Virus record (IMG/VR): IMGVR_UViG_2529292718_000014
Span: 1 to 15,294 of that record
Source of the DNA: a virus
Lineage: Duplodnaviria > Heunggongvirae > Uroviricota > Caudoviricetes
Direction: 5' to 3' (one strand)
Length of the DNA: 15,294 bases
Shown here: one piece after another, positions 1,120 through 15,294 of the stretch
How the letters are laid out: every line of letters starts with the position of its first letter
How positions within the stretch are numbered: position 1 is the first letter of the stretch
Translations under genes and position numbers: made by a program
The notes under the pieces: model-generated
Told to the model about the DNA's origin: nothing
Seen by the model: only the letters and a program-made list of their open reading frames with translations
Database searches by the model: none

Positions 1120-1366
1120 GAGTTAAAATCTCCTTCAGTGCATCATCATCGCCAGTATGAATTTCCGGCGCAATTCCCGTTTCACCAGGCCCAACAAATA
1201 CTGCTCGGCGATCTATCAGCCAACGCCCACGAATTTTTTGTGGTCTTGGAACGATGTATCCTAGTTTTCCGTATTTCACCAGGGTAGTGTTTGTTATTGG
1301 GAGACTGAACCGTTTTGGTTTCCACTCATCGAGCGTTATCAGGTATTGTTCGCTCATGGCTATCAC
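1088..1366 (-). CDS. xis: Excisionase-like small DNA-binding protein (92 aa; true start may be the Met at 1357)
   Basis: Small ORF immediately upstream of and overlapping int. N-terminal motif YLITLDEW resembles lambda Xis YLTLQEW (recollection). Position and size are typical of an excisionase. Confidence 0.75.
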   Translation of the reverse strand: MIAMSEQYLITLDEWKPKRFSLPITNTTLVKYGKLGYIVPRPQKIRGRWLIDRRAVFVGPGETGIAPEIHTGDDDALKEILTHVTEATKKQH

Positions 1367-1418
1367 TCCGGAACGCGCCAGTTGCAGAATACCAACGACA
1401 ACTGGCGACGGTTGAACA

Positions 1419-3383
1419 TTAAAAATCAGCCTGACTCGGGATCAGTTTTTGCCAGATAGCTGAAATGTATTTTGCCTGGTAACGAGCGTCATCAAGTGCA
1501 TTATGGCGCTCACCTTCGAATGGAATAGCCGTTCTGGCATCGAAGTCCAGGGCTTTTCCTAATTCAACGATTGTGCGTACATCGCGATCGTTGCAGTAGC
1601 GCCACGGGCAGGGGATCCCCTGTCGTTCGTATGAGCGGCGTAAAATCACGTTGTCGAAGTTGTCTCCATTTCCCCAGACCTGAACAAAAAATTCACCGGA
1701 GTTTTCGTCGATAAATTCCCGCAATTGCAGTAGTGCATCATCTAACGGGATTTCATCGGTCATAATGGCAGACTGCGCTTCACGTGATTGCTTCAGCCAC
1801 CATTTAATGACGTCACGATCAATGACTCCGCCAGCAGTATCCAGATCGATGGTCTTGCTAAATTCCGGTCCCATATCTCCGGTTTGTGGATCGAAAAATA
1901 TTGCGCCTATTGAGATAATCGGGGCATCGGGATTTTTTCCCATGGTTTCAAGGTCGATCATCAGATGAATCCCCGCTCTGCTGGTGGATGTGAGATTATG
2001 ATGACCGTTCGCCTTAATTAAGAGATCTGTCGCCTCGCCAGTTTCATTATCGCTGGCGTGGTCCTGAGCGCTGCCAGCATTCTCCTTGTGTGGATGTTCA
2101 GCGCCTTCCATTTCCTCCGAATCGTCTTCCTGAACTTCAACTTGGTTCTCGTCATCGAATGTTTCCTGGTATGTTGCGTCGCCCATCACCGCGCCACAAT
2201 CAGGGCAGTTGCCGCCACCGCTCTGACCGCAGACGGTGCAGACTTTTTCCGGTTCCTGTTGCGCTACTGGTTCGGATTGTTTCGTTTTTGGCTCTTTTCG
2301 TTGCACATTTGGGCTGTTTTGTTCCGCTTTCTGGTCGTTCTGTTCCGTTTCTTGCTGGTTCTGGTTCACAGAATCGCGGGTTTCAATCCCCTTCACCCAT
2401 TTCGGATCATTCGGATCGCTAATCCCTGCAACAAATTCACCACGTGATACTGCAAGCAGTTCATCGGCGTCAGGCTGGCTGATATTGGCTGCCTGCATAA
2501 TTTTGTTTACTTCGTCAGCGGTAACTTTTACCGGCTCTGGTTGTGCGGTCGTGTCAGATGCACCAGTATTTTGTTGTAAACCTGAGTATGTACCGTTTTT
2601 GCGGGCGAAATATTCTTCTTTCGTGATTTCAGTAGCCCCGGCAGCCAGCGCCTTATCCAGACCAGAAAGTTTGTTTGCGCGACCGTATTTTTCGCCATCC
2701 TTGTCGGTGAAGAGGAAGTAGAACGGCCCCTCACGTTCTACAGATGGTTCGACTTCCACTTTGCATTCGGTTTTTTCGTTGTCCGGAATTGCCGTTTCCA
2801 CTGCATCAGTTTCTGGTACTGGCGACGAGAGAGTATCAGTTGCGCTCTGATTTGTTCCTTCATCTTCAAACACGCCCTTTGTAGTCAGGTATTCAGTAAT
2901 GTATTTGTTCAGTGCCACAGGGTCTTTGTGAATGTCGATCGGACGTTCACGGACAAGGCCAAAAATAGTCTGGCGGTCGTAGCGAAGGGCATCAGGCTGT
3001 TTGCGCATTGATGCCGAGATACGCTTCCAGTCTTCGCGGTCGTTGTCGATAACTTCATTTTTTGCCCAGCGATGGATGCTGCCGTCAATGTTTCCGGCAT
3101 CCACATCACCAGGCCAGAGAGCGTAGGCCAGTTCGTCATCCAGTGTTTTCCATGTCTGCTTGTATTCGCGATGAATGGCAGCAATGACCGGGTTGATATT
3201 TTCCTGCTGAGTTTTCAGTGTGCTGTCGGTTGACTCTGGCGCGGGCGAGATCAACAGCAGACGTGTATTTTCCGGTTTCCTTGCGTTCACCTTCGCGACG
3301 TTTTTTCCAGATGCGCATCTCTGCCTGAATTTCGGGCCATTTAGCTCCAGGCTTACATTTATGCTTAACCCACCCGATGGCAT
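1419..3383 (-). CDS. DEDDh-type 3'-5' exonuclease domain protein with Cys-rich zinc-ribbon-like motif (654-aa ORF; probably the C-terminal part of a larger disrupted gene, reminiscent of DLP12 exoD)
   Basis: C-terminal region has DnaQ-like motifs: MIDLETMG (Exo I D-x-E), a later acidic motif, and HNALDDARYQ (Exo III H-x4-D). CTVCGQSGGGNCPDCG suggests a zinc ribbon. The N-terminal 248 nt overlap another protein-like frame (3136-3654), implying a frameshift. The resemblance to exoD is from memory and its position next to xis, not a search. Confidence 0.72.
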   Translation of the reverse strand: MPSGGLSINVSLELNGPKFRQRCASGKNVAKVNARKPENTRLLLISPAPESTDSTLKTQQENINPVIAAIHREYKQTWKTLDDELAYALWPGDVDAGNIDGSIHRWAKNEVIDNDREDWKRISASMRKQPDALRYDRQTIFGLVRERPIDIHKDPVALNKYITEYLTTKGVFEDEGTNQSATDTLSSPVPETDAVETAIPDNEKTECKVEVEPSVEREGPFYFLFTDKDGEKYGRANKLSGLDKALAAGATEITKEEYFARKNGTYSGLQQNTGASDTTAQPEPVKVTADEVNKIMQAANISQPDADELLAVSRGEFVAGISDPNDPKWVKGIETRDSVNQNQQETEQNDQKAEQNSPNVQRKEPKTKQSEPVAQQEPEKVCTVCGQSGGGNCPDCGAVMGDATYQETFDDENQVEVQEDDSEEMEGAEHPHKENAGSAQDHASDNETGEATDLLIKANGHHNLTSTSRAGIHLMIDLETMGKNPDAPIISIGAIFFDPQTGDMGPEFSKTIDLDTAGGVIDRDVIKWWLKQSREAQSAIMTDEIPLDDALLQLREFIDENSGEFFVQVWGNGDNFDNVILRRSYERQGIPCPWRYCNDRDVRTIVELGKALDFDARTAIPFEGERHNALDDARYQAKYISAIWQKLIPSQADF

Positions 3384-3895
3384 GCAGCTTAAGCTCCGGA
3401 TACATAGCGTTAACTTCTGGCATTTTCATCAACGCTTCAACGATATGGCCGTCGAATGTTGCCATGTCTTCCTGCAACAATTCCTGTGCGCTAATCACCA
3501 TATCAACAGTGATGTTTTCACATGTGTCGAACTTAACCATGACAGCGTTCTGTACTTCAGGGGCTAGGTTGTCAAAAGTGACGTTCATCGGATCGGATTC
3601 AGTCTCGACCGGGACAAAGGAAGCAGACGCCTCATCCCAGCGGTTTTCCTGCATATATTCAGCATCCCAGGAATCGAGGGCAGGGCGGGGTATACCGGGT
3701 TTATCCTCGCAAACAAGAAATTTATAAGCGCAGTCCTGAGCAGCCGGATAATGTTCCAGGAATTGCCAGTGAAATTTTGCGCGGGCGCGACGTTCATCAC
3801 CGGCTTCAATGGCAGTGGCTACAGTGACGGCACCTTCTTCCTTTATTGCCTGTTCGTCCGGAATGGCGGCGCAAATAAAGACTGATCTTACCCAG
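3136..3895 (-). pseudogene. Upstream protein-like reading frame of the exonuclease locus, lacking a start codon for its first ~80 codons; likely a disrupted 5' portion of the same gene
   Basis: The frame of the 172-aa ORF (3136-3654) stays open and protein-like upstream to a TAG near 3895 (…AIKEEGAVTVATAIEAGDERRARAKFHWQFLEHYPAAQDCAYKFLVCEDKPG…), with no ATG/GTG/TTG before the Met at 3654. It overlaps the 654-aa ORF by 248 nt in another frame. A T6/A6 run lies at 3301-3306. Confidence 0.45.
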
Positions 3896-3986
3896 CAATA
3901 GTGGACACGCGGCTAAGTGAGTAAACTCTCAGTCAGAGGTGACTCACATGACAAGAATGAAAGCGGATGTTTATTACGGAACTGTT

Positions 3987-4178
3987 TTAAAGACCTGCCG
4001 GGATTTCGTTATTATCCTGGTGAATAACTTTATCGACCGGGTAACAGTTACCGGGAATTTTCTGTTCGGTTGCTGCAGTCATACATTCCTGCATTGTCCT
4101 GTGAACACTGACTGCAATATCAACTGACTCTCCGGAAACAAGATAAACTGTCAGAACAAGCGCAAATGCTGAATTCAT
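3987..4178 (-). CDS. Small hypothetical protein (63 aa) with N-terminal signal-peptide-like or transmembrane segment
   Basis: MNSAFALVLTVYLVSGESV… has a hydrophobic N-terminus followed by a polar domain with two Cys. Its ATG overlaps the stop of the upstream ORF in an ATGA arrangement, suggesting translational coupling. The ORF track's longer 81-aa start is less likely. Confidence 0.45.
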   Translation of the reverse strand: MNSAFALVLTVYLVSGESVDIAVSVHRTMQECMTAATEQKIPGNCYPVDKVIHQDNNEIPAGL

Positions 4179-4363
4179 TGTGCACATTCTTTTGGCATCA
4201 GACGTAAACGAGCCAGCATTGAAACAATGCATATTTTATTTAATAGCTCCCGTTCTTGTTTTCTCTTGTTAATGGCATCTTCAGTAAATACTGGGTTACT
4301 GATAGTGACACCAATTTCAAAACAACCTTCAGACGTATTAACGTTTGGTAATAACGTTTCCAT
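4175..4363 (-). CDS. Small hypothetical protein (62 aa from the METLL start; ORF track extends to 4468)
   Basis: Protein-like translation METLLPNVNTSEGCFEIGVTISNPVFTEDAINKRKQERELLNKICIVSMLARLRLMPKECAQ. The N-terminal extension in the ORF track runs through an inverted-repeat motif (4418-4440) and reads poorly. Coupled to the downstream small ORF. Confidence 0.4.
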   Translation of the reverse strand: METLLPNVNTSEGCFEIGVTISNPVFTEDAINKRKQERELLNKICIVSMLARLRLMPKECAQ

Positions 4364-4921
4364 TATCGCGTCCTCAACAATGAATTTTGTGATGCGGTGC
4401 CTAGTGCCTCCAGGTGACGTTAACCAGTTAACAATTAACGCCGGATACAGAGAACCCACCCATAACACTGTTTTTGGTTTTAACTGTTCCGCGTGCGCTT
4501 AGCCGCATTCACCGCATCACAAAATTCACTTTAAAAAGGGCGGCAGAGCAGTCACGGAGTAAAACTGATACCGCTAAACGCCACCAGAAAATTGATAACA
4601 GAGGGCGTTGCAGCGGGGTTGTCACTTAAGCGTATGGTCAACCTGACAACCCGGTGTCCTCAACGGGGAAGGAATAACCCCGCCATACTTACCGCCGCGC
4701 CATTTCGCGGATTGCCACAACCGGAAGCGCACGGTCGAATTAAATTTAACGACACCGTACAGACAGAATAACTTCGCCGTGCGCTTTCGCGTTATGTCCT
4801 GACTTTTCAGGGATATATCCTTCCAGTAAACTGCCAGTGCCGGATGCTCACCCGTGTCCGGCGCACGCACTCCACCTGACCCGTGGAGAACTCCTTAATT
4901 ACCAACCCTCAGGAGGGTGAA

Positions 4922-5143
4922 ATGACTAGTAAAAATGTAAATATCCAGTTTAACCACGATGTTTCTCCTGCTGGACTTGCGGATGAGCTCACTGCTATAA
5001 AAACGGCAATTATGCTACTTGCTGCTAAGTTGCCTGCGTCATCAAAGCCAGCGGAAATTTGTGACTCATTGCGTAAGATGAATTCAACAAAATGCAATGA
5101 GATGGCATCACTTATTGAAAGTGCAATTGATTTTAATGATTAA
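4922..5143 (+). CDS. Hypothetical small protein (73 aa)
   Basis: ATG at 4922 preceded by AGGAGG at 4911-4916; the upstream extension in the ORF track is unlikely. It is the only plus-strand ORF in a leftward block, and its 3' end overlaps the convergent ORF 5133-5507 by 11 nt. Confidence 0.5.
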   Translation: MTSKNVNIQFNHDVSPAGLADELTAIKTAIMLLAAKLPASSKPAEICDSLRKMNSTKCNEMASLIESAIDFND

Positions 5144-5507
5144 TCGAAATTTCATGGCTAACTGTAACACTCCCATCTGTGGCGGGATGGTTTAAATCGC
5201 TGGGATTAATGCCGCACTCAGTAAAATGGTTCTTAAGGGGTTCTATCCGAATCCCTTTCTTTTTCATTAACAAGCCAAACCCCTTATCAATGATATCCAT
5301 TAATTCCAGGAGGTATTTTTCATGTAAATCCTGGTTATCAGAGAGCTGCTTCTCTTCGTACAGACCGATAAAGGCACGACGCACGTTACCGGATATAGTA
5401 TCGATGGTTTCTTTTTCTACGGTACTCAGGTCAAGAGTCGCCAGTTGGGAACGAACTATATTCGCTGCCATTTCCTGGAATTGCATTGGTAAATCTTTAA
5501 ATTCCAT
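5133..5507 (-). CDS. Hypothetical protein (124 aa)
   Basis: Clean ORF with protein-like composition in the leftward early operon. No family recognised. Confidence 0.6.
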   Translation of the reverse strand: MEFKDLPMQFQEMAANIVRSQLATLDLSTVEKETIDTISGNVRRAFIGLYEEKQLSDNQDLHEKYLLELMDIIDKGFGLLMKKKGIRIEPLKNHFTECGINPSDLNHPATDGSVTVSHEISINH

Positions 5508-5529
5508 TATTAGCCTCGTTGGTTAGCTA

Positions 5530-5748
5530 TTAACGTGGGTATGTAATCATTCTGGCAATGCTTAATGCCGCTGCTTTTTCCAAATTGGTGATATCCTGCT
5601 CCAGAGCGGACAGATTTTCAGCCTGCTTAGCCTTGGCTTCATTGGCCCATTTCAGGTCCTGCGCGGCCTTAATTTTCTGGCGCATCCACTCATAAAGCTC
5701 ATCATCGGTATAGTCTGGCGCGATGATGACGGGTTCTCGTTTCTGCAT
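5530..5748 (-). CDS. Hypothetical small protein (72 aa), predicted helical/coiled-coil
   Basis: ORF in the leftward operon. The segment KIKAAQDLKWANEAKAKQAENLSALEQDITNLEKAA is heptad-like. Confidence 0.55.
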   Translation of the reverse strand: MQKREPVIIAPDYTDDELYEWMRQKIKAAQDLKWANEAKAKQAENLSALEQDITNLEKAAALSIARMITYPR

Positions 5749-5777
5749 ACTGATTCCTCGCGGTGCTGTTTCGCTTA

Positions 5778-5906
5778 TCAGCCGTTAGATTTTGCCGAGC
5801 TGGAAAGCGCCCGTTTAAATTCGCTGAAGCTGAGAGCTTCTTCGCCTTCGGCAAGGCCTTCGAAGTATTCTTCGTAAGCCTTTTCCATGATTGTGTCGAA
5901 ATCCAT
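5778..5906 (-). CDS. Small acidic ORF (42 aa), not in the supplied ORF track
   Basis: Found by manual translation: MDFDTIMEKAYEEYFEGLAEGEEALSFSEFKRALSSSAKSNG. The ATG lies 1 nt after the stop of the upstream 78-aa ORF, with GGTGAG just upstream. Confidence 0.3.
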   Translation of the reverse strand: MDFDTIMEKAYEEYFEGLAEGEEALSFSEFKRALSSSAKSNG

Positions 5907-5907
5907 A

Positions 5908-6144
5908 TCACTCACCTGAGTTTCTTTCCAGCCAGCGACGGGCACCATTTTCGGTTTTAAACGTTTTGCTTTTGGTATACGTCATCGCGGTGAACGTACC
6001 GTCCTGGTTGGGGAACACGCCACATACCAGAGATTCGCTGTTGCCAAGATCGATAGTATCCATGCTGACCTCATTTCCCCTTAACGCCGGGGTAGCGGAA
6101 CAAAAACCTGCTGCATAGTTATTAAAGTTGAACCCTGCCGTCAT
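5908..6144 (-). CDS. Hypothetical protein (78 aa; alternative start at internal MDTIDLG), first gene of the leftward early operon
   Basis: ORF immediately downstream (leftward) of the OL-like operator region. Not recognisably N-like: no arginine-rich N-terminus. Confidence 0.5.
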   Translation of the reverse strand: MTAGFNFNNYAAGFCSATPALRGNEVSMDTIDLGNSESLVCGVFPNQDGTFTAMTYTKSKTFKTENGARRWLERNSGE

Positions 6145-6240
6145 GTTCTTACGCCTCGGGCTGGCTACTTAACCCCTGACCACTGCTTGGTAACTCGAAG
6201 TATTGCCCTGCATTCTGTGGGGCGGGGTGGGTGGTAGGCA

Positions 6241-6290
6241 TATAATGTACTTTGCGTTCATTGTTGTAAAGTACTTTTAGTACATTTTGT
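6241..6290. promoter_or_regulatory. OL/pL-like operator-promoter region with ATGTACT / AGTACT / AGTACAT repeats
   Basis: ATGTACT at 6245-6251, palindromic AGTACT at 6270-6275, and inverted copy AGTACAT at 6279-6285. Located between the repressor gene end and the leftward early genes. The same heptamer recurs in the cI-cro intergenic region. Confidence 0.45.
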
Positions 6291-6360
6291 GTGTAAAAAA
6301 ATGAGATGGGATAAAGTGAAGCACAAACCCGGAGGAAGGCGCTACCGGATTTATGCTGGT

Positions 6361-6780
6361 TTAAGAGGCTTTTTGTTTTTTCTTTCGTGCTAACTCTTCG
6401 TAAATTGCATTGTACTTCTGTTTTTTCTCTTCAAGAGTTTTTAAAAGTTCATCTGTCTCACTGTCAGGGAGCTCGTCCAGAAGGTCAATGATGATTTTTT
6501 GTCTTGGATTTAACTCCTGATAGAAACGTACCTGTCCACTTTCTTCTGTATCCTCTCCCAAAAGATAGGTTGGTGTTGTTCCTATTAGTGTTGCTAATTC
6601 CCTTAATTTCTCCCGGCGAGGAATTGTTTCGCCATTAAACCATTTGCTAACCGCTTTTGGTGTTAATTTCATTCGACGGGCAATTTCTGCCTGCCTTCCA
6701 TGTTGTTCATAACCAGCGTTTTCACAGGCTAGCGCAAGCCTACTGGCGAACTCTTTACGCGCTTTATCTTCATGAACCAT
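6361..6780 (-). CDS. Prophage repressor, XRE-family HTH (cI-like), 139 aa, without a recognisable S24/LexA-type autocleavage domain
   Basis: N-terminal HTH-like segment (…QAEIARRMKLTPKAVSKWFNGETIPRREKLRELATLIGTTPTYLLG…) with a charged helical C-terminus. Divergent from the Cro-like gene, with shared operator repeats between them. No Ala-Gly/Ser…Lys peptidase motifs seen. Confidence 0.82.
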   Translation of the reverse strand: MVHEDKARKEFASRLALACENAGYEQHGRQAEIARRMKLTPKAVSKWFNGETIPRREKLRELATLIGTTPTYLLGEDTEESGQVRFYQELNPRQKIIIDLLDELPDSETDELLKTLEEKKQKYNAIYEELARKKKQKAS

Positions 6781-6859
6781 AAGTTCAATGATATTCGCTC
6801 TTGAATGTACTGTCAGTTCTGTTATGGCATGTACTCAAAGTTCACATTGTGAGGGTGAT
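6781..6859. promoter_or_regulatory. OR-like divergent promoter/operator region (pRM/pR analogue)
   Basis: Intergenic between the divergent repressor and Cro-like genes. Two direct ATGTACT copies at 6805-6811 and 6829-6835. GAGGGTG Shine-Dalgarno precedes the cro-like ATG at 6860. Confidence 0.45.
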
Positions 6860-7114
6860 ATGAACCAGAAAACACTTGAAGATGTAATCAAAACTGTTCG
6901 CGTTGCTGTTGTGGCCGACGTTTGTGGTGTCAGCCAAAGAGCAATCTATAAATGGATGGATAACGGAAAATTGCCTCGCACAGAATATACCGGCGAAACA
7001 AATTACGCTGAAAAAATCGCTCTTGCATCAAACGGATTATTTTCTGCCGATGCAATTTTAACTATTGGCAGGAATAAAACTACTACGAAAAAGCTGATGG
7101 GAGTTGATTCATGA
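6860..7114 (+). CDS. Cro-like HTH regulator (84 aa from the ATG at 6860)
   Basis: Segment VADVCGVSQRAIYKWMDNGKLP is HTH-like. It is the first rightward gene, divergent from the repressor. The ORF-track start at 6788 would sit inside the operator region. Confidence 0.7.
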   Translation: MNQKTLEDVIKTVRVAVVADVCGVSQRAIYKWMDNGKLPRTEYTGETNYAEKIALASNGLFSADAILTIGRNKTTTKKLMGVDS

Positions 7115-7536
7115 AAATCAAGCATGAACACATCCGCATGGCGATGAATGCCTGGGCGCATCCGGACGGCGAAAAAGTACCGGCTGCGAAAATTACCAAA
7201 GCGTATTTCGAGCTGGGAATGACGTTCCCGGAACTGTATGACGACAGCCATCCGGAAGCCCTGGCTCGCAATACTCAGAAAATTTTCCGCTGGGTGGAGA
7301 AAGACACCCCTGATGCGGTTAAAAAAATTCAGGCGTTGTTACCAGCTATCGAAAAAGCAATGCCACCTCTGCTGGTGGCCCGAATGCGCAGTCATAGCTC
7401 AGCGTATTTTCGGGAACTAGTGGAGACGCGGGAACGACTGGTGAGAGACGCTGATGATTTTGTCGCAGTGGCGATCGCTGGTTTCAACCAGATGAATCGT
7501 GGTGGCCCTGCAGGAAATATTGTGGCTGTGCATTGA
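7111..7536 (+). CDS. CII/YdaT-like early regulatory protein (141 aa)
   Basis: Start overlaps the Cro-like stop (ATGA-type coupling). Position immediately after cro matches cII/YdaT-type genes of lambdoid and Rac-like prophages. Family assignment is by recollection only. Confidence 0.55.
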   Translation: MKIKHEHIRMAMNAWAHPDGEKVPAAKITKAYFELGMTFPELYDDSHPEALARNTQKIFRWVEKDTPDAVKKIQALLPAIEKAMPPLLVARMRSHSSAYFRELVETRERLVRDADDFVAVAIAGFNQMNRGGPAGNIVAVH

Positions 7537-7607
7537 CTCGCAATATTCATACCGGATCACTTCCGGCAATTTGTGAGTAAAAAGATTCGGTATCAAAAGA
7601 GGTGAGT

Positions 7608-8678
7608 ATGGCTAACGCCTGGCTCAGATTATGGCATGACATGCCAAATGACCCTAAGTGGCGAACAATTGCCAGGGTGTCAGGGCAGCCAATTGCAACA
7701 GTGATGGCAGTGTATATCCACCTCCTGGTGAGCGCGTCACGAAATGTCACGCGAGGTCACATTGATGTCACGACAGAAGATTTGGCAAGTGCGCTCGACG
7801 TGACAGAAGAGGTAATTGATTCAATTTTGCAGACGATGCAGGGGCGGGTACTTGATGGTGATTTAATCACTGGATGGGAAAAACGCCAGGTGCTGAAAGA
7901 GGACAACGGCAATATTTCGCAAACCGCAAAATCTCCGGCAGAGCGCAAGAGGGCGCAGCGAGAGAGGGAAAGAAAGCGGGAACAAAATGGCGATTGTCAC
8001 GGCGAGTCACGAAATGTCACGCACATGTCACGACGAGTCACGACAGATAAAGATACAGATAAAGATACAGATCAAGAAGATCAAAACACTATGGTCCATG
8101 GCGTAAAAAACGCCACGAACCAGGCAGGGGATGTTCAGACCGTCACTCCTGGCCAGCCCGCAGGCACGACACCGGAAGCCGATTCAGCGTATGCGCTGAA
8201 AGCCGATTCGGGCGCTGTGCAGCAGGTGATGACCGCAAGGCAGGAGCAATCACACCAACTTCAGCAGCCTGAAGCCGATTCCGCCATTCAGCGGGAAGCC
8301 GATCGGGTAGTCCCGGAAAACACCGGGCAGCCTGTGGGACGAGTGGATTATCCTGATGTGTTCGAACAGGTCTGGCGGGAATACCCGTTGCGTGCCGGGG
8401 CAAACCCGAAGAAATCCGCTTTCAGTGCCTGGAAGGCCAGATTACGCGAGGGGGTGCCACCAGAGGCCATGCTGGATGGCGTGAGGCGTTACGCAAGATA
8501 CTTGGCGGCTACCGGGAAAACGGGAACGGAATTTGTTCAGCGAGCGACGACGTTTTTTGGACCGGACCGGAATTTTGAGAACCCCTGGTTGCTCCCGGTA
8601 AGCGGCACGAACAACCAGCGTTGTGTGAATCATATTTCTGAACCGGATAACGAAATTCCGCCGGGCTTCAGGGGGTAA
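7608..8678 (+). CDS. Replication initiator / replisome organiser (lambda O-like), 356 aa, containing the iteron origin
   Basis: AGAGGTGA Shine-Dalgarno before the ATG at 7608. The gene body contains two arrays of GTCACG repeats at 10-11 bp spacing and an AT-rich tract, as lambda ori sits inside gene O. The encoded protein repeats SRNVT…VTT accordingly. Confidence 0.65.
   Translation: MANAWLRLWHDMPNDPKWRTIARVSGQPIATVMAVYIHLLVSASRNVTRGHIDVTTEDLASALDVTEEVIDSILQTMQGRVLDGDLITGWEKRQVLKEDNGNISQTAKSPAERKRAQRERERKREQNGDCHGESRNVTHMSRRVTTDKDTDKDTDQEDQNTMVHGVKNATNQAGDVQTVTPGQPAGTTPEADSAYALKADSGAVQQVMTARQEQSHQLQQPEADSAIQREADRVVPENTGQPVGRVDYPDVFEQVWREYPLRAGANPKKSAFSAWKARLREGVPPEAMLDGVRRYARYLAATGKTGTEFVQRATTFFGPDRNFENPWLLPVSGTNNQRCVNHISEPDNEIPPGFRG
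7736..7772 (+). repeat. Iteron array 1: four GTCAC(G/A) repeats at 10-11 bp spacing
   Basis: GTCACG at 7736, 7746 and 7767, and GTCACA at 7756. An inverted CGTGAC copy lies at 7799-7804. Confidence 0.55.
7996..8085 (+). repeat. Iteron array 2 (five GTCACG repeats) plus adjacent AT-rich tandem repeat; probable replication origin core
   Basis: GTCACG at 7996, 8006, 8016, 8027 and 8037 (spacing 10, 10, 11, 10). Followed by ATAAAGATACAG x2 and AT-rich sequence to about 8085. A 17-bp block GTCACGAAATGTCACGC is shared with array 1. Confidence 0.6.
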
Positions 8679-8718
8679 GTGTTAATTTCTGGTCATGAGG
8701 TAATTTTCAGGAGGGCTT

Positions 8719-9174
8719 GTGGCAAAAGTTTTTACACAAGAAGAGCGGGAAAAAATTAAAGGGCAGGTTGTTGAACTCGTACGCCAGAGTGGGCGCGAGA
8801 CGTTACGACAACTGGAAACTAAAACTGGGGCAACAAGATATCTGATGAGCGTTCTGGCCAGAGAGCTGGTTGCCAGTGGCGATGTATACAACTCTGGTTA
8901 CGGGTTATTCCCGTCTGAACAGGCGCGTAAGGACTGGCAAAATGCCCGTAAAAAGCTCTCAAGGGCAAAGCTGAAGAAACCATCTGCGGTTGATCCGGAC
9001 CTTATCTGGTCATTACCTGACGGAGAAATACGTCGCTACGACAGGCGTCAGAACATAATCTGTCGCGAGTGCCGGAAGAGCGAAGCTATGCAGCGTGTAC
9101 TGGCATTTTACCAGAATGGTTTTCGAGAGACATTCGGTGAACAGGTTGTGCATGAGGGAAATCATGGCGCTTAG
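8719..9174 (+). CDS. Hypothetical protein (151 aa, GTG start)
   Basis: AGGAGGG Shine-Dalgarno before the GTG at 8719. Protein-like composition, CxxC near the C-terminus. Sits where a helicase loader would be in lambda but shows no recognisable similarity to one; may be truncated. Confidence 0.5.
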   Translation: MAKVFTQEEREKIKGQVVELVRQSGRETLRQLETKTGATRYLMSVLARELVASGDVYNSGYGLFPSEQARKDWQNARKKLSRAKLKKPSAVDPDLIWSLPDGEIRRYDRRQNIICRECRKSEAMQRVLAFYQNGFRETFGEQVVHEGNHGA

Positions 9175-9189
9175 GCAATTGTGTAGACG

Positions 9190-9480
9190 CGTTGACGGCC
9201 GAAAGCATAGGAGGGTTGATTGATCGTTCTAGTTATGCTGTCAGAGCGAAAGCGCAGGAACTGGGTATCAATAGGATGTTAAGAGGGGGGGTTATAACCA
9301 ATCAAAAAAACATCCGCAAAGCGATATTGAGCTAGTGCGGAAGCTTCATCAGTGTGGAGTTCCCCGCCGTGATATCGCTGTAAAACGCGAAATGTCCTTG
9401 GGCATGATTAATCAGTACGTTTATTTCGACAGGAGAGCGCATGAAGTTTGACATCTAGACAACTGGGGGAGCGCTGAAAA
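9190..9480 (+). pseudogene. Decayed coding remnants (HTH-like peptide fragments in two frames) with a G7 homopolymer
   Basis: Short protein-like stretches interrupted by stops: …SSYAVRAKAQELGINRMLRGG… and …VRKLHQCGVPRRDIAVKREMSLGMINQYVYFDRR…. G7 run at 9285-9291. No intact ORF of 60 aa or more. Confidence 0.3.
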
Positions 9481-9599
9481 CGTTCTTAATTGATGTTGGA
9501 TTCGCTTTACATACTGAACTGTTTGGCTGAAAGACACGGTAGTATCACCAATCAAGGTGCTTTTGATAAACGCTTGTGTGTTTGTTTTTTAATCCATTG

Positions 9600-9628
9600 T
9601 TGACAACTAGGTTAGTTTTCCATATCAT
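9600..9628 (+). promoter_or_regulatory. Near-consensus sigma70 promoter for the ParA-like gene
   Basis: -35 TTGACA at 9600-9605, 17-nt spacer, -10 TATCAT at 9623-9628. The ATG at 9659 follows about 30 nt downstream, with GGTGG ahead of it. Confidence 0.55.
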
Positions 9629-9658
9629 CAATAAAAGTGTAAAACTAATGGTGGCGAT

Positions 9659-10705
9659 ATGACTAGTGAATCAAATGTTAATGCTCTGATAGAGCGTCAA
9701 TTCGAAGTTGCTGACGGTAATGTAAGAAGTCTTAATTTGCCGAAATATGATAAATATACAGTATGTAATTTACGGGGAGGCATTGGTAAGACATCTTTAA
9801 CTTTTAATCTGTCATATTTGGCGGATAACGCATTAATCGTGGATACGTGCCCGCAAGGAAATTTATCATATTTTTTTGACAATAATTATGCATCTTCGTC
9901 TAGCACAACTGCAAATGACCTCTTAATGCCTTATTTTGTTCCAGGGCTTGGATTTGCAACGCGTGCTGCAAAGCTAGTATCATCAACTAATGCTTGGTTT
10001 GCGGGCAAGAATAACTATTTTATTCAATCTGATAGTCAACTTTATCTTCTACCTACGCAAATGGCGAATGCTCTGGCTCAAGCCAGAACAATTTCTGGGG
10101 CTACTCAGCAGGTTGTTATTGATACAATTCTTTTTTCTCTGAAGAAAGAAATAGCCAGAGAAATGGTTGAAACTGGTACTACAAAAGCGTTAATTGATAC
10201 ATCACCTTTTTTCTCTGGAGCGACGCATTTATCTTGGCATGCAACAGATGCTTTAATAGTTCCAGTGAGGACAGATCAGCAATCGATTAATTCATTAAGA
10301 TTACTTATTGATACTCTGACTAAACCAACATCAGAATTTAGAAAGATAATGCCGTCTGATGGCCATACACCAAAAATTCAGATGGTGGTTATTACCCATT
10401 GCGGATGGTCAACAGTGGCAGGAGCAAGGAATAAACCAAATCAACAGACAAAAATGTACATCGAAGCTGTAAGAGAGGTAATTCGACAAAATATTAGTAA
10501 TTTTACAACAGATGATCCTAATAATCACATTGTGATTCTTGATGATTTTCTGGGTAGTGGCAGAATGTCAAGTGCTAAGTCTAAACCATTAGAGTTGTTA
10601 AATCCAGGAGATGCAATGACTGTGAATAGAGTTAGGACATCCGTGAATTTATCTGTTAACAAAATAAAAAATGAATTAAAGTTCATTCACAACTCCATAT
10701 GGTAA
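9659..10705 (+). CDS. Orphan ParA/MinD-family P-loop ATPase (348 aa) with variant deviant Walker A
   Basis: NLRGGIGKTS matches the deviant Walker A KGGxGK[ST], with Arg in place of the signature Lys. DTCPQGNLS matches the ParA D-x-D-P-Q-G-N motif. LIDTSP is a Walker B-like motif and ALIVPVRTDQQSINSLRLL a ParA-like segment. C-terminal extension of about 100 aa. The region is visibly AT-rich by eye. No ParB-like gene is adjacent. Confidence 0.8.
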   Translation: MTSESNVNALIERQFEVADGNVRSLNLPKYDKYTVCNLRGGIGKTSLTFNLSYLADNALIVDTCPQGNLSYFFDNNYASSSSTTANDLLMPYFVPGLGFATRAAKLVSSTNAWFAGKNNYFIQSDSQLYLLPTQMANALAQARTISGATQQVVIDTILFSLKKEIAREMVETGTTKALIDTSPFFSGATHLSWHATDALIVPVRTDQQSINSLRLLIDTLTKPTSEFRKIMPSDGHTPKIQMVVITHCGWSTVAGARNKPNQQTKMYIEAVREVIRQNISNFTTDDPNNHIVILDDFLGSGRMSSAKSKPLELLNPGDAMTVNRVRTSVNLSVNKIKNELKFIHNSIW

Positions 10706-10862
10706 ATGACATTTTATTTGAATAATCTGGATTGATAATTATTGTTACATTAATTGTTATTAATTCTAAATAATCCTATCGTTCTTCAGGATGAGATAAT
10801 TTATATTTATTTGTGTTGTGATTTTTTGAATTTATTTAGGTTTATGAACTGTTTTAGATGAA

Positions 10863-10982
10863 ATGAATCATGAATACGAAATTGTTGCGGTACTGATAAC
10901 GAGGAAAGACCTCTGCGAGGTACGAATCCGAACCGGCCAGACGGAGGTCGCTGTCTTCACAGCTTACGAACCTGAGGAGTAA
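10863..10982 (+). other. GC-rich element: candidate 39-aa small ORF or 5' part of a structured small RNA
   Basis: ATG at 10863 to TAA at 10980-10982 encodes MNHEYEIVAVLITRKDLCEVRIRTGQTEVAVFTAYEPEE with a weak Shine-Dalgarno. The segment is much GC-richer than its AT-rich flanks. It is followed by a perfect 8-bp hairpin with GAAA loop (10991-11010) and the terminator at 11050-11072. Confidence 0.3.
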
Positions 10983-11049
10983 GAGACCAGGCGAGGGAGA
11001 AATCCCTCGCCACCTCTGATGTGTCAGGCATCCTCAACGCACCCGCACT

Positions 11050-11072
11050 TAACCCGCTTCGGCGGGTTTTTT
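11050..11072 (+). terminator. Rho-independent terminator (copy A of an identical 23-bp element)
   Basis: TAACCCGCTTCGGCGGGTTTTTT: 6-bp GC stem ACCCGC/GCGGGT, UUCG loop, T6 tract. An identical 23-mer occurs at 12885-12907. Confidence 0.7.
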
Positions 11073-11073
11073 A

Positions 11074-11120
11074 TTGGTTGACAAAATTATGAATATGCAC
11101 CAATATCTTGGTTGACAAAA
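11074..11120 (+). promoter_or_regulatory. Two direct TTGGTTGACAAAA repeats (34 bp apart) upstream of the cassette; candidate promoter -35 elements and/or operator
   Basis: 13-bp perfect repeats at 11074-11086 and 11108-11120, each containing TTGACA. The -10 matches at 17-bp spacing are weak (CAATAT, GGATTA), so an operator role is also plausible. Confidence 0.4.
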
Positions 11121-11155
11121 GTCGTTTTTTGCACGGATTAGGCGGAGAAGTGTCT

Positions 11156-11749
11156 ATGCAGAACCATCCATTCCCTTGGGAGTTCTTTCCTGAGTTAACA
11201 GAGGTGCGTTTAACCATTATAGCTGAGGAGTTGCTCAGGATACAGGATATTACTCATGAGTTATTGTCATCGCCCTATGATGATAATTACACTCGTGGTG
11301 GTTGTACATTTGGGCGTCAGCGGCAGGCGTTGCTACAAATGTGCGTACGAAAGACATATGACTGGTTAAGACTACTTAATCCTGGCATGGATCTTACGTT
11401 TTCAATTGGGAATGTCCCTATTCGTTTCTTTACTGATGACGCAGATAACCCCAAGAAACGCGGTTTTTTCAAAAGAAATGATGCTGATCGACTCTTTGAG
11501 TCAGAGGAGACTACTCCAACTATGCATCGCTTTGTGGTTGAAAAGCCTGAATTTGAAGGCGAGGGTGGTAGAGTCATTTTTAATGGCTATAACGTGTTTG
11601 GTGAGATCGTGTCAACTTGGACATATGGTGCGGACCGTGTTGTTATGCTGAACTCTGTCGATGATGTACCTCCAGCACCGGTACCTATCGAACTAGAACC
11701 TATCAGTGCGTCTAAGACTGAGAAGGAAAAGAAACAAAATAGCAAATAG
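11156..11749 (+). CDS. Hypothetical protein (197 aa), first gene of the accessory cassette
   Basis: ATG at 11156 with GGAG 8 nt upstream; the TTG start in the ORF track lies inside the upstream repeat and is unlikely. Protein-like composition with an acidic, Pro-rich C-terminal tail. No recognisable catalytic motif or family. Confidence 0.7.
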   Translation: MQNHPFPWEFFPELTEVRLTIIAEELLRIQDITHELLSSPYDDNYTRGGCTFGRQRQALLQMCVRKTYDWLRLLNPGMDLTFSIGNVPIRFFTDDADNPKKRGFFKRNDADRLFESEETTPTMHRFVVEKPEFEGEGGRVIFNGYNVFGEIVSTWTYGADRVVMLNSVDDVPPAPVPIELEPISASKTEKEKKQNSK

Positions 11750-11759
11750 TGGGTGAAAT

Positions 11760-12881
11760 GTGTTTAACGGTACTAATTTAAGACTTGCTCGTCTGTATCA
11801 CGAGCTATCTCTGGAGCAGGTTGCTGAGAAGGTTGAAAAAACACGCCAGTATGTACAGCGACTGGAGTCTGGTTCAGCTACTCCATCCCCAGAGCTTATA
11901 AATAAATTAGCCGAGGTTTTGCGCGTGAAGCCCGCCTTTTTCGAAGGGCAGGAACATTCTCCTGTTAATGAAGAGATTGTACATTTTCGTAAACGCGCCT
12001 CGACAAGGATGTCAACGAAGCTATCAACACTCGCTAAGGCTGAGTTTTATCGTCGTTTTATTGATGTATTTGAAGATAACCTTAATTTGTCACCTGTTCG
12101 ATTTCCTGAATTTCGTGTCCATACACAAGAAGATATCGAGCGAGCGGCAGAAAAATGTCGTATTGAGTGGGGCTTAGGCTTTGGCCCAATTGAAAATATG
12201 ACTCGCCTTGCCGAGAAACTTGGGGCGTTTGTTACTTCATTTGACTCCGTTTCGGATGAAGTAGATGCACTGTCTGTTCCTCTACGAAGGCCTTTTATTG
12301 TTCGAAATACAGCTAAAAATTCACCTTGTAGGCAACGCTTTGATATTGCTCATGAGGTTGCCCATTTGATTCTTCATGAAGGAATTTCTACTGGGGATAG
12401 ATTAACTGAATCCCAGGCAAACCGTTTTGCCTCTGCTCTGTTGCTTCCCAGAACGTCGATGGCGAAATATTTTCCAAGACCTGTGGGGGGGAGGATAAAT
12501 TGGCAGGGACTAAGCCAATTTAAGTTGACATGGAAAGTAAGTAAGGCTGCCATTGTTTACAGGGCTCATCAATTAGGACTTTTGACTGATGAGCAGTACA
12601 GAACTGCATTTATGGGGTTGAAACGGAAAGGGGAAGCTATTGATGAAAAAGAAGATTATCTAATCCCTCATGAGCGTCCTGAGTTATTCCGTCGGGCTTT
12701 ATCGTTTTTATTTGAAGAGTTAGGATACGACCCACAGCGTATAGCTGATGAAATGGATATAGAAGTGGACATTTTTTATGAGTTAGTAGGAGATGATCTT
12801 CCTGCGGTTCATGAACTGCCAGGAAGTGGTGATGTTGTTTCACTACAATCTTACCGAACTCTTAGAGGCAAAATTCACTAG
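11760..12881 (+). CDS. XRE-family HTH fused to ImmA/IrrE-type (COG2856, M78-like) zinc metallopeptidase domain, 373 aa
   Basis: N-terminal HTH (LRLARLYHELSLEQVAEKVEKTRQYVQRLESG). Central HEXXH motif in RQRFDIAHEVAHLILHEG, followed by a downstream acidic region typical of ImmA/IrrE proteins. Starts 10 nt after the 197-aa gene, so likely co-transcribed. Followed by terminator copy B. Confidence 0.85.
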   Translation: MFNGTNLRLARLYHELSLEQVAEKVEKTRQYVQRLESGSATPSPELINKLAEVLRVKPAFFEGQEHSPVNEEIVHFRKRASTRMSTKLSTLAKAEFYRRFIDVFEDNLNLSPVRFPEFRVHTQEDIERAAEKCRIEWGLGFGPIENMTRLAEKLGAFVTSFDSVSDEVDALSVPLRRPFIVRNTAKNSPCRQRFDIAHEVAHLILHEGISTGDRLTESQANRFASALLLPRTSMAKYFPRPVGGRINWQGLSQFKLTWKVSKAAIVYRAHQLGLLTDEQYRTAFMGLKRKGEAIDEKEDYLIPHERPELFRRALSFLFEELGYDPQRIADEMDIEVDIFYELVGDDLPAVHELPGSGDVVSLQSYRTLRGKIH

Positions 12882-12884
12882 GCA

Positions 12885-12907
12885 TAACCCGCTTCGGCGG
12901 GTTTTTT
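12885..12907 (+). terminator. Rho-independent terminator (copy B, identical 23-mer)
   Basis: TAACCCGCTTCGGCGGGTTTTTT, identical to 11050-11072. Begins 4 nt after the stop of the HTH-peptidase gene. Confidence 0.7.
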
Positions 12908-12982
12908 GTTTTACGTATTCTGGTTTACAATCTACAGGCCAGCCTGAACAACTGGCACCTGCTGCGCCAGCAGAGAAAACCG

Positions 12983-13255
12983 ATGGCGCACGATACCAAA
13001 CATCACAATTCTGATACTGCCCTTGCCAGCTGGTGCGGGCGGCGTTTTCATGCATTCAAATCTGACTGGTACCAGCATGCCCCATGCACTGAAGAACAGG
13101 CCGAATGGCTGATTCAGAACTACCGCAGGCGTGGGTACGACTTTCAGAAAGACCTCGGCCCTGACTTCCGACACTGGATAATTTCTGTCAGGCTCCCTTA
13201 TTCCGAACGCCCACCGCGTCCGTCCCGCACATTCCAGCAACGCATCTGGAGGTAA
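12983..13255 (+). CDS. Hypothetical nin-region protein (90 aa)
   Basis: ORF whose stop (13253-13255) lies 1 nt before the GTG of the next gene, suggesting coupling. The C-terminus is Pro/Arg-rich and reads poorly, so the call is uncertain. Confidence 0.45.
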   Translation: MAHDTKHHNSDTALASWCGRRFHAFKSDWYQHAPCTEEQAEWLIQNYRRRGYDFQKDLGPDFRHWIISVRLPYSERPPRPSRTFQQRIWR

Positions 13256-13256
13256 C

Positions 13257-13691
13257 GTGCGGGTATTACTTCGACCTGTTCTGGTACCGGAACTCGGGCT
13301 GGTTGTCGTTAAGCCAGGTCGTGAATCCATGCAGGTATTCCATAACGGCAGGGTACTGGTGGAGCCGGAACCGAAAAGCATGCGTAATCTGCCGTCCGGG
13401 GTCGTTCCTGCCGTTCGCCAGCCGCTGGCGGAGGACAAAACATTGCTGCCGTTTTTCAGTAACGCACGGGTAATTCGTGCTGCTGGTGGTGCTGGTGCAT
13501 TGTCTGACTGGCTGTTGCGCCATATTAAATCCTGCCAGTGGCCACACGGCGATTATCATCACAGCGAAACCGTTATTCACCGATATGGTACCGGCGCAAT
13601 GGTGTTGTGCTGGCACTGCGACAACCAGCTGCGTGACCAGACATCCGAATCACTCGAGCAACTGCTCATCAAAACCTGTCAGCATGGATGA
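13257..13691 (+). CDS. Hypothetical nin-region protein with Cys/His cluster (144 aa; GTG start, or internal Met)
   Basis: GGAGG 5 nt upstream of the GTG at 13257. Motif C-x-W-P-H-G-D-Y-H-H…C-W-H-C-D suggests metal binding. Its stop overlaps the next ATG (ATGA). Confidence 0.55.
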   Translation: MRVLLRPVLVPELGLVVVKPGRESMQVFHNGRVLVEPEPKSMRNLPSGVVPAVRQPLAEDKTLLPFFSNARVIRAAGGAGALSDWLLRHIKSCQWPHGDYHHSETVIHRYGTGAMVLCWHCDNQLRDQTSESLEQLLIKTCQHG

Positions 13692-14305
13692 TTGACGTCA
13701 TCGGTCACGCAATAAGCGGTACGCAGGAGCGTGAATTATCTCTGGCTGAATTATCCTGGTGGGCGGTCCGCAATCAGCTGGCGGACGCGCTACCGGAAGC
13801 GGTATTACGTCGCTCGCTGGGATTACCAGCGGAAAAAATCTGCTCGGTGTACCGCGAAAGCGACATCGTACCGGGAGAGCAGACCGCCACCAGCATATTG
13901 AAACAGCGCACAAAAAATCTTGCACCGTTGCCTCACGCCCACCAGCAACAAAACCCATCACAGGAAAAGACGGTGGTAAGCATCACCGTTGATCCAGAGT
14001 CTCCGGAATCTTTCATGAAGCTGCCTAAACGTCACCGGTGGGTTAAGGAGAAATACACACGCTGGGTTAAGACACAGCCGTGTGCTTGCTGCGGTATGCC
14101 AGCCGACGATCCGCATCATCTGATTGGTCACGGGCAGGGCGGAATGGGAACCAAAGCACATGATCTCTTTGTTTTGCCTTTGTGCAGAAAGCATCACGAC
14201 GAGTTGCATACGGATACCGTGGCATTTGAAGAGAAGTATGGCTCCCAACTGGAGCTGATTTTTCGATTTATCGATCGCGCGCTGGCAATTGGTGTGCTGG
14301 CCTAA
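13688..14305 (+). CDS. nin-region protein with HNH/zinc-finger-like motif (205 aa), possibly NinG/Rap-like
   Basis: Motif [18 protein letters not shown]…[10 protein letters not shown] has a CxxC…HH…C…HH pattern. Position just upstream of Q matches the lambdoid nin region. Family name is by recollection. Confidence 0.65.
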
Positions 14306-14322
14306 TTTTGTGGAGTAAGTTG

Positions 14323-14700
14323 ATGCGTGATATTCAGATGGTTCTTGAGCGTTGGGGGGCATGGGCGGCTAATAATCATGAAGATGTGACCTGGTCGTCC
14401 ATTGCCGCCGGTTTTAAGGGATTAATTCCTTCAAAAGTAAGATCTCGTCCGCAATGCTGTGACGATGACGCGATGATCATTTGTGAATGTATGGCTCGCC
14501 TGAAAAAAAACAACAGCGATTTACATGATTTATTGGTGGACTATTATGTCGGCGGCATGACTTTTATGGCGCTTGCACATAAGCATGGGCGATCTGATTG
14601 TTGGGTTGGCAGGATGCTCCAGAAAGCTGAGGGCGTAGTGGAGGGCATGCTGATGGTGTTGGATCTCCGATTGGAGATGGATGCTGATTGTTCGAAATAA
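14323..14700 (+). CDS. Late-gene antiterminator Q (phage 82 / DLP12 QuuD-like type), 125 aa from the ATG at 14323
   Basis: N-terminus [24 protein letters not shown]… and the Cys cluster [17 protein letters not shown] match my recollection of QuuD-family Q proteins. GGAG 9 nt upstream. Followed by a tR'-like terminator. Confidence 0.8.
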
Positions 14701-14798
14701 TTAAAGGAAAAGTTGCTGTCTGATTTTCATTAGTCTAACATTTTAAATGTTGGAATCGCAACGTAGTTATTATCATATAACAGCTTGTTTCCTGATTT

Positions 14799-14828
14799 AG
14801 CCAGCCTCCCCAAAGGCTGGTTTTTTTC
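14799..14828 (+). terminator. Rho-independent terminator downstream of Q (tR'-like)
   Basis: Stem CCAGCC/GGCTGG (14801-14806 and 14815-14820), 8-nt loop, T7 tract at 14821-14827. Expected late promoter/qut region lies between the Q stop and this hairpin. Confidence 0.65.
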
Positions 14829-14990
14829 TAATAAGTATCATTTCGGGTGGGGATTTTATTGTTTAACCCATAATAGTTCATTGACATTGAATCCCAACTT
14901 TTGAGCGGTACGCACATAGTCTGCTTTTACATTATCTGGAATAGTTTGGGTCCTTGCCAGAATCCATAGGTATTCTCTGTTCGGACCACT

Positions 14991-15294
14991 GGTGATGCTG
15001 CCAACTTACTGATTTAGTGTATGATGGTGTTTTTGAGGTGCTCCAGTGGCTTCTGTTTCTATCAGCTGTCCCTCCTGTTCAGCTACTGACGGGGTGGTGC
15101 GTAACGGCAAAAGCACCGCCGGACATCAGCGCTATCTCTGCTCTCACTGCCGTAAAACATGGCAACTGCAGTTCACTTACACCGCTTCTCAACCCGGTAC
15201 GCACCAGAAAATCATTGATATGGCCATGAATGGCGTTGGATGCCGGGCAACCGCCCGCATTATGGGCGTTGGCCTCAACACGATTTTCCGCCAT
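14991..15294 (+). mobile_element. IS1 insertion sequence, left end (partial; continues beyond the window)
   Basis: Terminal inverted repeat GGTGATGCTGCCAACTTACTGATTTAGTGTATGATGGTG begins at 14991 and matches the canonical IS1 end, followed by insA. Confidence 0.95.
15046..15294 (+). CDS. insA: IS1 InsA (partial, 3' end outside the window)
   Basis: GTG start at 15046. Translation [83 protein letters not shown] matches IS1 InsA as I recall it. Confidence 0.95.

Follow-up and report, generated by a model that had tools for sequence, protein, structure and literature searches.

We examined how a two-gene anti-phage defence cassette is joined to its surroundings in a 15,294-nucleotide (nt) stretch of viral DNA (IMG/VR record IMGVR_UViG_2529292718_000014, positions 1 to 15,294; hereafter, the window), which is the early region of a lambda-like Escherichia coli prophage of the Rac/Qin type. 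The cassette, a predicted RosmerTA operon, lies between two identical copies of a 23-base-pair (bp) hairpin sequence, TAACCCGCTTCGGCGGGTTTTTT (hereafter, the 23-mer), exact at 11050-11072 and 12885-12907. Relatives that lack the cassette hold one copy only, and we propose, as a reading that is probable without being secure, that cargo cassettes are exchanged at this hokD site by recombination within the shared terminator hairpin. From the remnant of hokD to the antiterminator gene Q, the locus is organized as follows.

10881-10982, + strand: hokD coding remnant, truncated at its 5' end (last ~33 codons and the stop codon), with similarity to intact hokD from ~10881-10888
10983-11049, + strand: 3' untranslated region (UTR) of the hokD messenger RNA, running into the predicted terminator and conserved upstream of the hairpin
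11050-11072, + strand: copy 1 of the 23-mer, predicted hokD terminator hairpin, at the same post-hokD position in empty-site prophages
11076-11134, + strand: control region of the cassette, with GGTTGACAAAA-N9-TGCAC present as two direct repeats of 25 nt
11156-11749, + strand: rmrT, RosmerTA toxin of 197 amino acids (PADLOC RmrT, E = 5e-92 over the full length; phrog_5786)
11760-12881, + strand: rmrA, RosmerTA antitoxin of 373 amino acids (PADLOC RmrA, E = 4e-201, full length)
12885-12907, + strand: copy 2 of the 23-mer, predicted terminator of the rmrTA operon, beginning 3 nt past the rmrA stop codon and continuous with the empty-site sequence
12908-12931, + strand: spacer and -35-like CTGGTTTACAAT box (12920-12931) before the small open reading frame (ORF), resembling the cassette's TGGTTGACAAAA box
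12983-13255, + strand: conserved small ORF of 90 amino acids, first gene of the right flank (phrog_1212)
14308-14700, + strand: Q antiterminator gene (Pfam Phage_antitermQ, E = 1.6e-50), 1.4 kb downstream of the cassette

Both gene order and domain content are those of RosmerTA, with the RmrT gene first and then RmrA, in which the Pfam domains HTH_3 and Peptidase_M78 correspond to a helix-turn-helix (HTH) domain fused to a zinc peptidase of the ImmA/IrrE type. A Pfam search with the rmrT product gave no match. RosmerTA was described as an anti-phage defence system by Millman et al. (10.1101/2022.05.11.491447), and we assign the cassette to this class of defence operon, phage protection being a prediction for the allele in the window. 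The two repeats of the control region (11076-11100 and 11110-11134) are spaced 34 nt apart, and the pattern GTTGACAAA...TGCAC is conserved upstream of rmrT in relatives found in other contexts (71-88% RmrA identity); the repeats probably comprise promoter -35 boxes and operators for the HTH domain of RmrA. The control-region sequence TGGTTGACAAA is one of only two DNA islands conserved across three strongly diverged RosmerTA variants at the hok site (v1, which is that of the window, v2 and v3), in which RmrA is 33-41% identical and alignable DNA is limited to TGGTTGACAAA and the hairpin. The cassette of the window itself (>=99% identity) occurs in 23 of 5,426 complete E. coli genomes, each time at the hokD site.

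An earlier sequence-only reading of this DNA had claimed that identical 23-mers stand in the same orientation on either side of the cassette, and this was borne out: both lie on the + strand, a search of the window that allowed up to 3 mismatches found nothing beyond these two copies, and 200 dinucleotide-preserving shuffles yielded none. Its expression that they "directly bracket" the cassette was likewise accurate, with copy 1 ending 5 nt before the first TTGACA box of the cassette and copy 2 beginning 3 nt after the rmrA stop codon. Each copy scored as terminator-like, with a 7-bp stem (AACCCGC/GCGGGTT), a UUCG loop and a run of six T residues, together forming a perfect 18-nt stem-loop before the T-run with a folding energy of about -14 kcal/mol per copy (41-nt context; z-scores of -2.9 and -3.2). 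In both cases a U-tract directly follows the G+C-rich stem-loop, which lies on the coding strand where a transcription unit ends, and we infer that both 23-mers act as Rho-independent terminators. Transcription arriving from a ParA-like gene on the left should stop at copy 1, and the constitutive rmrTA transcript of a lysogen should stop at copy 2, before Q; the transcriptional insulation that the earlier reading suggested is plausible. Aligned without gaps, the direct repeat spans 26 nt including one mismatch; with gaps, similarity runs past the 23-mers, ATT-GGTTGACAAAAT (11073-11087) on the 3' side of copy 1 finding its counterpart on the 3' side of copy 2 in ATTCTGGTTTACAATCT (12917-12933) after a 15-nt spacer. 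Downstream of the hairpin stands TGGTTGACAAAA in the case of copy 1 and CTGGTTTACAAT in that of copy 2; a promoter scan called neither site.

Cassette-less relatives give the state against which this arrangement can be read. The hokD and small-ORF/ydfU block occurs without the cassette in thousands of E. coli prophages, and in such relatives (e.g., NZ_CP046396) a single hairpin directly abuts the right flank. Among viral contigs, which we designate by L-numbers, ~27 with hok context show one hairpin and then, immediately, the right flank, and six hold the exact 23-mer once, with the hok 3' UTR before it and the window's flank allele GTTTTACGTATTCTGGTTTACAA after it. These six were found with a relaxed pattern, since their hok 3' UTR departs by a single base from the stricter one. 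The window and the empty-site contigs L296, L302 and L312 have identical right flanks. Since the exact 23-mer is single in six contigs that carry the window's flank, the window equals the empty site plus 1,835 bp (11073-12907), composed of a 1,812-bp cassette and one 23-mer, with a perfect 23-bp direct repeat at the bounds.

Lambda-like E. coli prophages have a hot spot for cargo between the hokD terminator and the small-ORF/ydfU/Q genes. We typed the cargo at 102 hok-context loci, and six of the ~10 cargo types that follow the hokD terminator end in a hairpin with the exact 14-nt core abutting the flank: the three RosmerTA variants, a 130-amino-acid ORF, a 164-amino-acid ORF, and a pair of HTH and peptidase genes. 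The window's flank allele was found in four states (empty, or with v1, v2 or the HTH and peptidase cargo), the 164-amino-acid cargo meets two flank types (L049 and L053), the v3 cassette joins a rem-type flank in L261 and the small-ORF flank in L257, in both cases at the hairpin, and v1 was seen with two right alleles and three left contexts, one of which has an intact hokD.

The junctions of these cassettes carry most of the argument. Left-hand hairpins keep the hok 3' UTR and the TAA, and cassette sequence starts right after the T-run. In right-hand hairpins the 5' arm is specific to the cassette (TAA, ATA or AAA), the loop differs in some of them (CTCG in L120, TACG in L257), and from the 3' stem onward the sequence is the local empty-site allele. 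Such chimeric right copies are the product that would be expected of a crossover inside shared sequence, and, together with the empty sites, they support the earlier proposal that the cassette was gained or exchanged by recombination at this element. The single copy that had been predicted for the empty site is present in the cassette-less relatives, whose lack of any 23-mer would have spoken against the proposal, and the description of the element as a "modular boundary sequence" also fits, other cargoes being bracketed likewise at the site.

The same junctions decide against a target-site duplication, in which a transposition-like insertion into the hokD terminator would have copied it. A perfect 23-bp direct repeat around an insert, relative to an exact empty allele, is what such an event would leave, and on this point the explanation does well. 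We ruled it out because the right copies are chimeric: they have a 5' arm and a loop of their own, so they were not copied from the target. Moreover, transposase and terminal inverted repeats are both absent, the same hairpin accompanies the cassette at other sites, and the repeat is inconstant in length, measuring 23 bp in the window, ~27-28 nt in L004 and L039 (where a T-rich tract is counted in) and, with one mismatch, just 20 nt in L120. Taken together, we regard this explanation as barely credible.

RosmerTA cassettes away from the hok site indicate where copy 2 came from. In v1 relatives (71-88% RmrA identity) the core hairpin after rmrA is mostly kept in unrelated phage positions, and v3 copies elsewhere (~70-90% DNA identity to the hok-site v3) mostly keep it too. 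These positions include a gap between tape-measure and minor-tail genes, a place after a P2-type replication gene, and the neighbourhood of dinI-like and holE-like genes. Because RosmerTA relatives in other phage positions mostly retain the core hairpin behind rmrA, copy 2 is the putative terminator of the RosmerTA operon itself and not a sequence made from the target. At loci of RmrA homologues in other species, the hairpin was found in 0 of 80, while the enterobacterial phage versions have it; the hairpin is therefore not intrinsic to RosmerTA everywhere. A left hairpin is also present in some non-hok cassettes, as in L256 and, in degenerate form, in L259. In L259 (~2700-4640), a RosmerTA variant sits between tape-measure and minor-tail genes with a 9-bp GCCCGGAGG repeat at both ends; GCCCGGAGG is the ribosome-binding region of the tail gene, and the hairpin of this contig is degenerate on the left and intact on the right.

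The repeated unit probably extends beyond the hairpin. At the left junction of L120 the empty-site spacer is kept up to the -35-like box (CTAGCAT..CTGGTTGACA), the junction reading TTTTTCTAGCATCTATCTGGTTGACA as compared with TTTTTTCCTAGCATTCTGGTTTACA at the empty site, and the left junction of L261, GCATTAGTCTGGTTGACA, likewise has the empty-site spacer up to the box. Because RosmerTA left junctions retain this spacer up to the -35-like box, the repeated unit is probably a composite of a predicted terminator and a putative promoter (-35) box, and recombination probably reaches the box next to the hairpin. In some contigs the left hairpin has decayed and the right copy is intact: L004 and L129 have lost 2-7 nt of the 3' stem/T-run (the number depending on the alignment), and in L305 and L315 the left hairpin reads TAACCCTCTTTGGCG. 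Losing one repeat would stabilise a cassette against deletion.

The exchange that we propose would run as follows. Cassettes that consist of a -35/operator box, genes and a UUCG-hairpin terminator would enter, leave and replace one another by a crossover within the ~20-30 bp common to the cassette and the resident site, namely the hairpin and T-run, to which RosmerTA cassettes would add the TGGTT(G/T)ACAA box. A cassette that integrated as a circle or by unequal pairing would come to have the hairpin as a direct repeat on both sides, and a crossover between these two repeats would give back the empty site with its single copy. The circle junction of an excised cassette would read ...CACTAGGCA-TAACCCGCTTCGGCGGGTTTTTT-ATTGGTTGAC... 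The repeat, the gene identities, the empty site and the junction anatomy were observed directly, the last over many cassettes and contexts, and it is from these that we infer the direction of events, the circular intermediate and the involvement of a recombination system, for which phage Red/RecET-type annealing, RecA and template switching at the hairpin are the candidates.

A number of observations weigh against this proposal. About four cargo types at the site are without a second hairpin (rem of K-12 Qin, and those of L005, L009 and L066), and a cassette-less prophage that shares the window's left context, with the ParA-like gene and the truncated hok, was found in none of the 5,426 genomes. 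We found no circle junctions or tandem cassettes of v1 or v3 in viral or metagenome contigs, assemblies being a poor test for them. Among the homology lengths used by known recombination systems, 23 bp ranks low, and the prophage's own RecE-like exonuclease gene looks frameshifted. Above all, the core hairpin is not specific to the site: it is also the terminator of rnpB and of the argX-proM tRNA operon, more than 50 unrelated contexts in phages contain the hairpin 21-mer; near-matches to the 23-mer number 4-16 in every E. coli genome, mostly in the 113-bp rnpB repeats and the tRNA operon; and these prophages often have terminators that combine a CCCGC/GCGGG stem with other loops, which means that part of the hairpin resemblance may be convergent. 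Two statements of the sequence-only reading suffer from this. Its premise that unrelated terminators rarely share 23 bases is weak, and the host-wide occurrence that it had named as grounds for abandoning the idea is partly what we see, in the form of the near-matches, while the junction anatomy still supports exchange. We had at first counted the hairpin among the very rare phage terminators, an estimate that we moderated in view of the frequent CCCGC-stem terminators with other loops.

The wide occurrence of the core hairpin and of CCCGC-stem terminators is also the case for coincidence or convergence, according to which illegitimate recombination in a permissive intergenic gap brought in an unrelated, look-alike terminator. 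AACCCGC-UUCG-GCGGGTT followed by a T-run would be a favoured compact design, and selection would have kept only insertions with a strong terminator upstream of Q, which lies just 1.4 kb downstream. The presence of the hairpin in RosmerTA relatives in unrelated contexts also agrees with convergence. Since the hairpin core is common in host and phages, we dropped identity as an argument by itself: the identity of the 23-mers is weak evidence when taken alone, and it is the junction anatomy that carries the case. Convergence leaves that anatomy unexplained, in that the flank allele resumes exactly in the hairpin/T-run in every bracketed cassette, there is zero leftover cassette T-run or duplicated flank, and cassette sequence stands immediately 3' of the left copy's T-run. 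It accounts neither for the exact 14-nt core in six of ~10 unrelated cargoes at one site nor for a perfect 23-bp repeat relative to the exact empty allele. We therefore judge convergence unlikely as the whole explanation, and return to exchange within the shared terminator hairpin.

Hairpins at both ends of a mobile cassette also bring to mind a dedicated enzyme that reads the hairpin as a structured site, in the style of integron attC or of a hairpin-targeting HUH transposase, with the terminator doubling as an att-like site. The attC sites of integrons are imperfect hairpins of 57-141 bp. The occurrence of hairpin-bounded cassettes in several different phage hot spots, and of a left hairpin in some cassettes outside the hok site (L256, and the degenerate one of L259), would be expected of such an enzyme, and the locus resembles integron cassettes in that cargo is bounded by a hairpin-forming repeat with alternative states at one site. 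Genes for an integron integrase, transposase or HUH enzyme are absent from the window and related loci, however, where a lambda-type prophage integrase is the only recombinase; the 18-nt perfect stem-loop is without the extrahelical bases or the length of attC; the cassettes bring their own putative promoter; and the junction positions vary within the repeat. Assignment to the integron cassettes proper was rejected: neither an integron integrase nor attI was found near the cassette, which has its own TTGACA boxes and, unlike attC, a short perfect terminator hairpin. A dedicated enzyme thus appears highly improbable.

A broader form of exchange at terminators is that the UUCG hairpin and -35 box form a general att-like joint for promoter-bearing defence cassettes, which would move, perhaps in the form of small circles, from hot spot to hot spot across different families of temperate phages. 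These hot spots would be the hokD/Q region, the tape-measure/minor-tail junction, the neighbourhood of the P2-type replication gene, and the moron sites with dinI-like and holE-like genes. We offer this extension tentatively, as a conjecture that would have to be called doubtful.

We searched the literature for this joint and no description turned up; the closest precedent is the PeSLs of T4-type phages, which are terminator/promoter composites flanking accessory ORFs, with one motif at the empty site (PMC2839356, PMC4122927). Recombination between PeSLs has been proposed to delete or insert genes, and mini-circles have been detected (PMC2839356; Arbiol et al. 2010; Comeau et al. 2014, PMC4122927). 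The hokD-site hairpin is similar in several respects. It is a short conserved terminator stem-loop, here beside a putative sigma-70-type promoter box, that flanks accessory genes; two copies surround the accessory genes in the filled genome, and the empty site of close gene-less relatives has one; it bounds unrelated cargo (six types or more) as a point of exchange; crossovers between the copies are proposed; and termination at the motif, here by prediction, would keep accessory transcription out of downstream genes. The differences are of sequence and setting. A genome of the lytic T4-type myoviruses has ~50 PeSLs, with conservation over ~100 bp (PMC2839356, PMC4122927), whereas the window has two copies in 15.3 kb of a 23-bp hokD/RosmerTA terminator with weak -35 similarity, unrelated in sequence and belonging to a temperate lambda-like prophage. 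Mini-circles have been demonstrated for PeSLs, whereas the viral and metagenome contigs searched here, assemblies that test for them poorly, gave no circle junction. The hairpin is best described as an analogue and not a member of the PeSLs, a putative terminator-mediated cassette joint in a temperate lambda-like prophage.

Other known systems match parts of the locus. A phage moron is reportedly an independent unit of promoter, gene and terminator, a concept said to go back to Juhala et al. 2000 and to have been reviewed by Cumby et al. 2012. The rmrTA unit has these properties, with promoter boxes of its own (promoter activity is predicted) and a predicted Rho-independent terminator, a position between conserved phage genes, and absence from close relatives. 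Unlike the moron concept, which names no insertion joint, the present locus has a terminator common to cassette and resident site that would mark the crossover. In lambda, tR2-tR4 are terminators of the nin region upstream of Q. The hokD-site terminators can be likened to these by position and type, being predicted Rho-independent terminators of a lambda-like early-right region, with the replication genes on one side and Q on the other. As in the hok/sok-type locus hokD/relF of Qin in K-12, copy 1 is the predicted 3' terminator after the hokD 3' UTR. The hok gene of the window differs in having no 5' half, hence no promoter and no start codon; intact hok/mok frames with promoter and a sok RNA were not found in the window, where Rfam matched DicF only. 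A tie between the hairpin and hok genes was considered and rejected, the plasmid hok locus having a different terminator and the K-12 hokC and hokE regions having no copy.

Prophage hot spots in which anti-phage systems turn over are known, and the entry and exit of cassettes is mostly ascribed to unspecified illegitimate recombination. The locus offers a concrete joint, a 23-bp terminator that is single when the site is empty and double around cargo, that is reused by at least six cargo types, and that accompanies the cassette to hot spots elsewhere in phages. Should shared terminators generally serve as recombination sites, this would explain why morons arrive with working regulatory signals and predict the landing places of new defence genes, and it would suggest short terminator repeats as a means of engineering or tracking the exchange of cassettes. 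The predicted terminator upstream of Q would also give a constitutive defence operon a way to sit in the lytic control region without triggering it. Were the joint truly att-like, it would be the temperate-phage counterpart of PeSL shuffling in T4 and a defined sequence mechanism for the turnover of prophage defences.

The remainder of the window is laid out as follows. A lambda-type integrase with an arm-binding domain (1-1119, - strand) is the sole recombinase. It is followed by an exonuclease gene (1419-3654, - strand) with weaker similarity to the RecE type (exonuclease VIII; phrog_2082, an 823-amino-acid profile), which is split into overlapping ORFs of 172 and 654 amino acids, suggesting a frameshift. 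The gene for the DicF small RNA lies at 4538-4589 on the - strand (Rfam, 68.6 bits), consistent with a Qin/Rac-like prophage. Rightward of it come a repressor/cro-like pair, a ydaT homologue, a replication initiator, a DUF977 gene and the ParA-like ATPase gene (9659-10705). The last of these, with an AT-rich stretch (10706-10880), replaces the 5' half of hokD; at its position, other prophages hold relBE, queH, a DUF5677 gene or an insertion sequence (IS) element. The left side of the hok remnant is thus also cargo, and therefore a ~190-bp island of hok 3' sequence and terminator sits between two variable regions. The remnant is annotated as an incomplete Hok/Gef pseudogene in NZ_CP029981, a 99.6%-identical record, and intact hokD is present in other carriers of the window's cassette. 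Conservation of the 3' UTR (...ggcatcctcaacgcacccgcact) extends to thousands of hokD loci in E. coli prophages and to roughly half of those viral contigs that contain the 21-mer.

On the right, the small ORF is annotated as hypothetical and adjoins the DUF968 gene in all prophages compared. This ydfU-like DUF968/HNH gene (13257-14305) is represented in the window by ORFs of 144 and 205 amino acids and in NZ_CP029981 by one of 349 amino acids. The rusA gene, present in NZ_CP029981 between the DUF968/HNH gene and Q, is absent from the window.

Further observations concern the hairpin in host DNA and in other phages. In L128, which is from the E. coli rnpB region, the 113-bp tandem repeats that follow rnpB all contain AAAAACCCGCTTCGGCGGGTTTTT. 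Many of the 21-mers in non-hok contexts precede the motif TTAT(T)GCCCGGAG, after which comes the start codon of differing genes; this is suggestive of a longer terminator/ribosome-binding-site junction that is conserved in other phage families. The contigs with the 21-mer and GCCCGGAG are:

L012, L019, L023, L027, L029, L040, L043, L078
L079, L093, L096, L104, L109, L117, L124

Finally, ~0.9 kb of additional ORFs distinguishes the related contigs L086 and L105. It lies immediately upstream of a CCCGC(T/C)(T/C)CGGCGGG hairpin that precedes a conserved gene, and this difference may be another cargo site bounded by the same type of hairpin.

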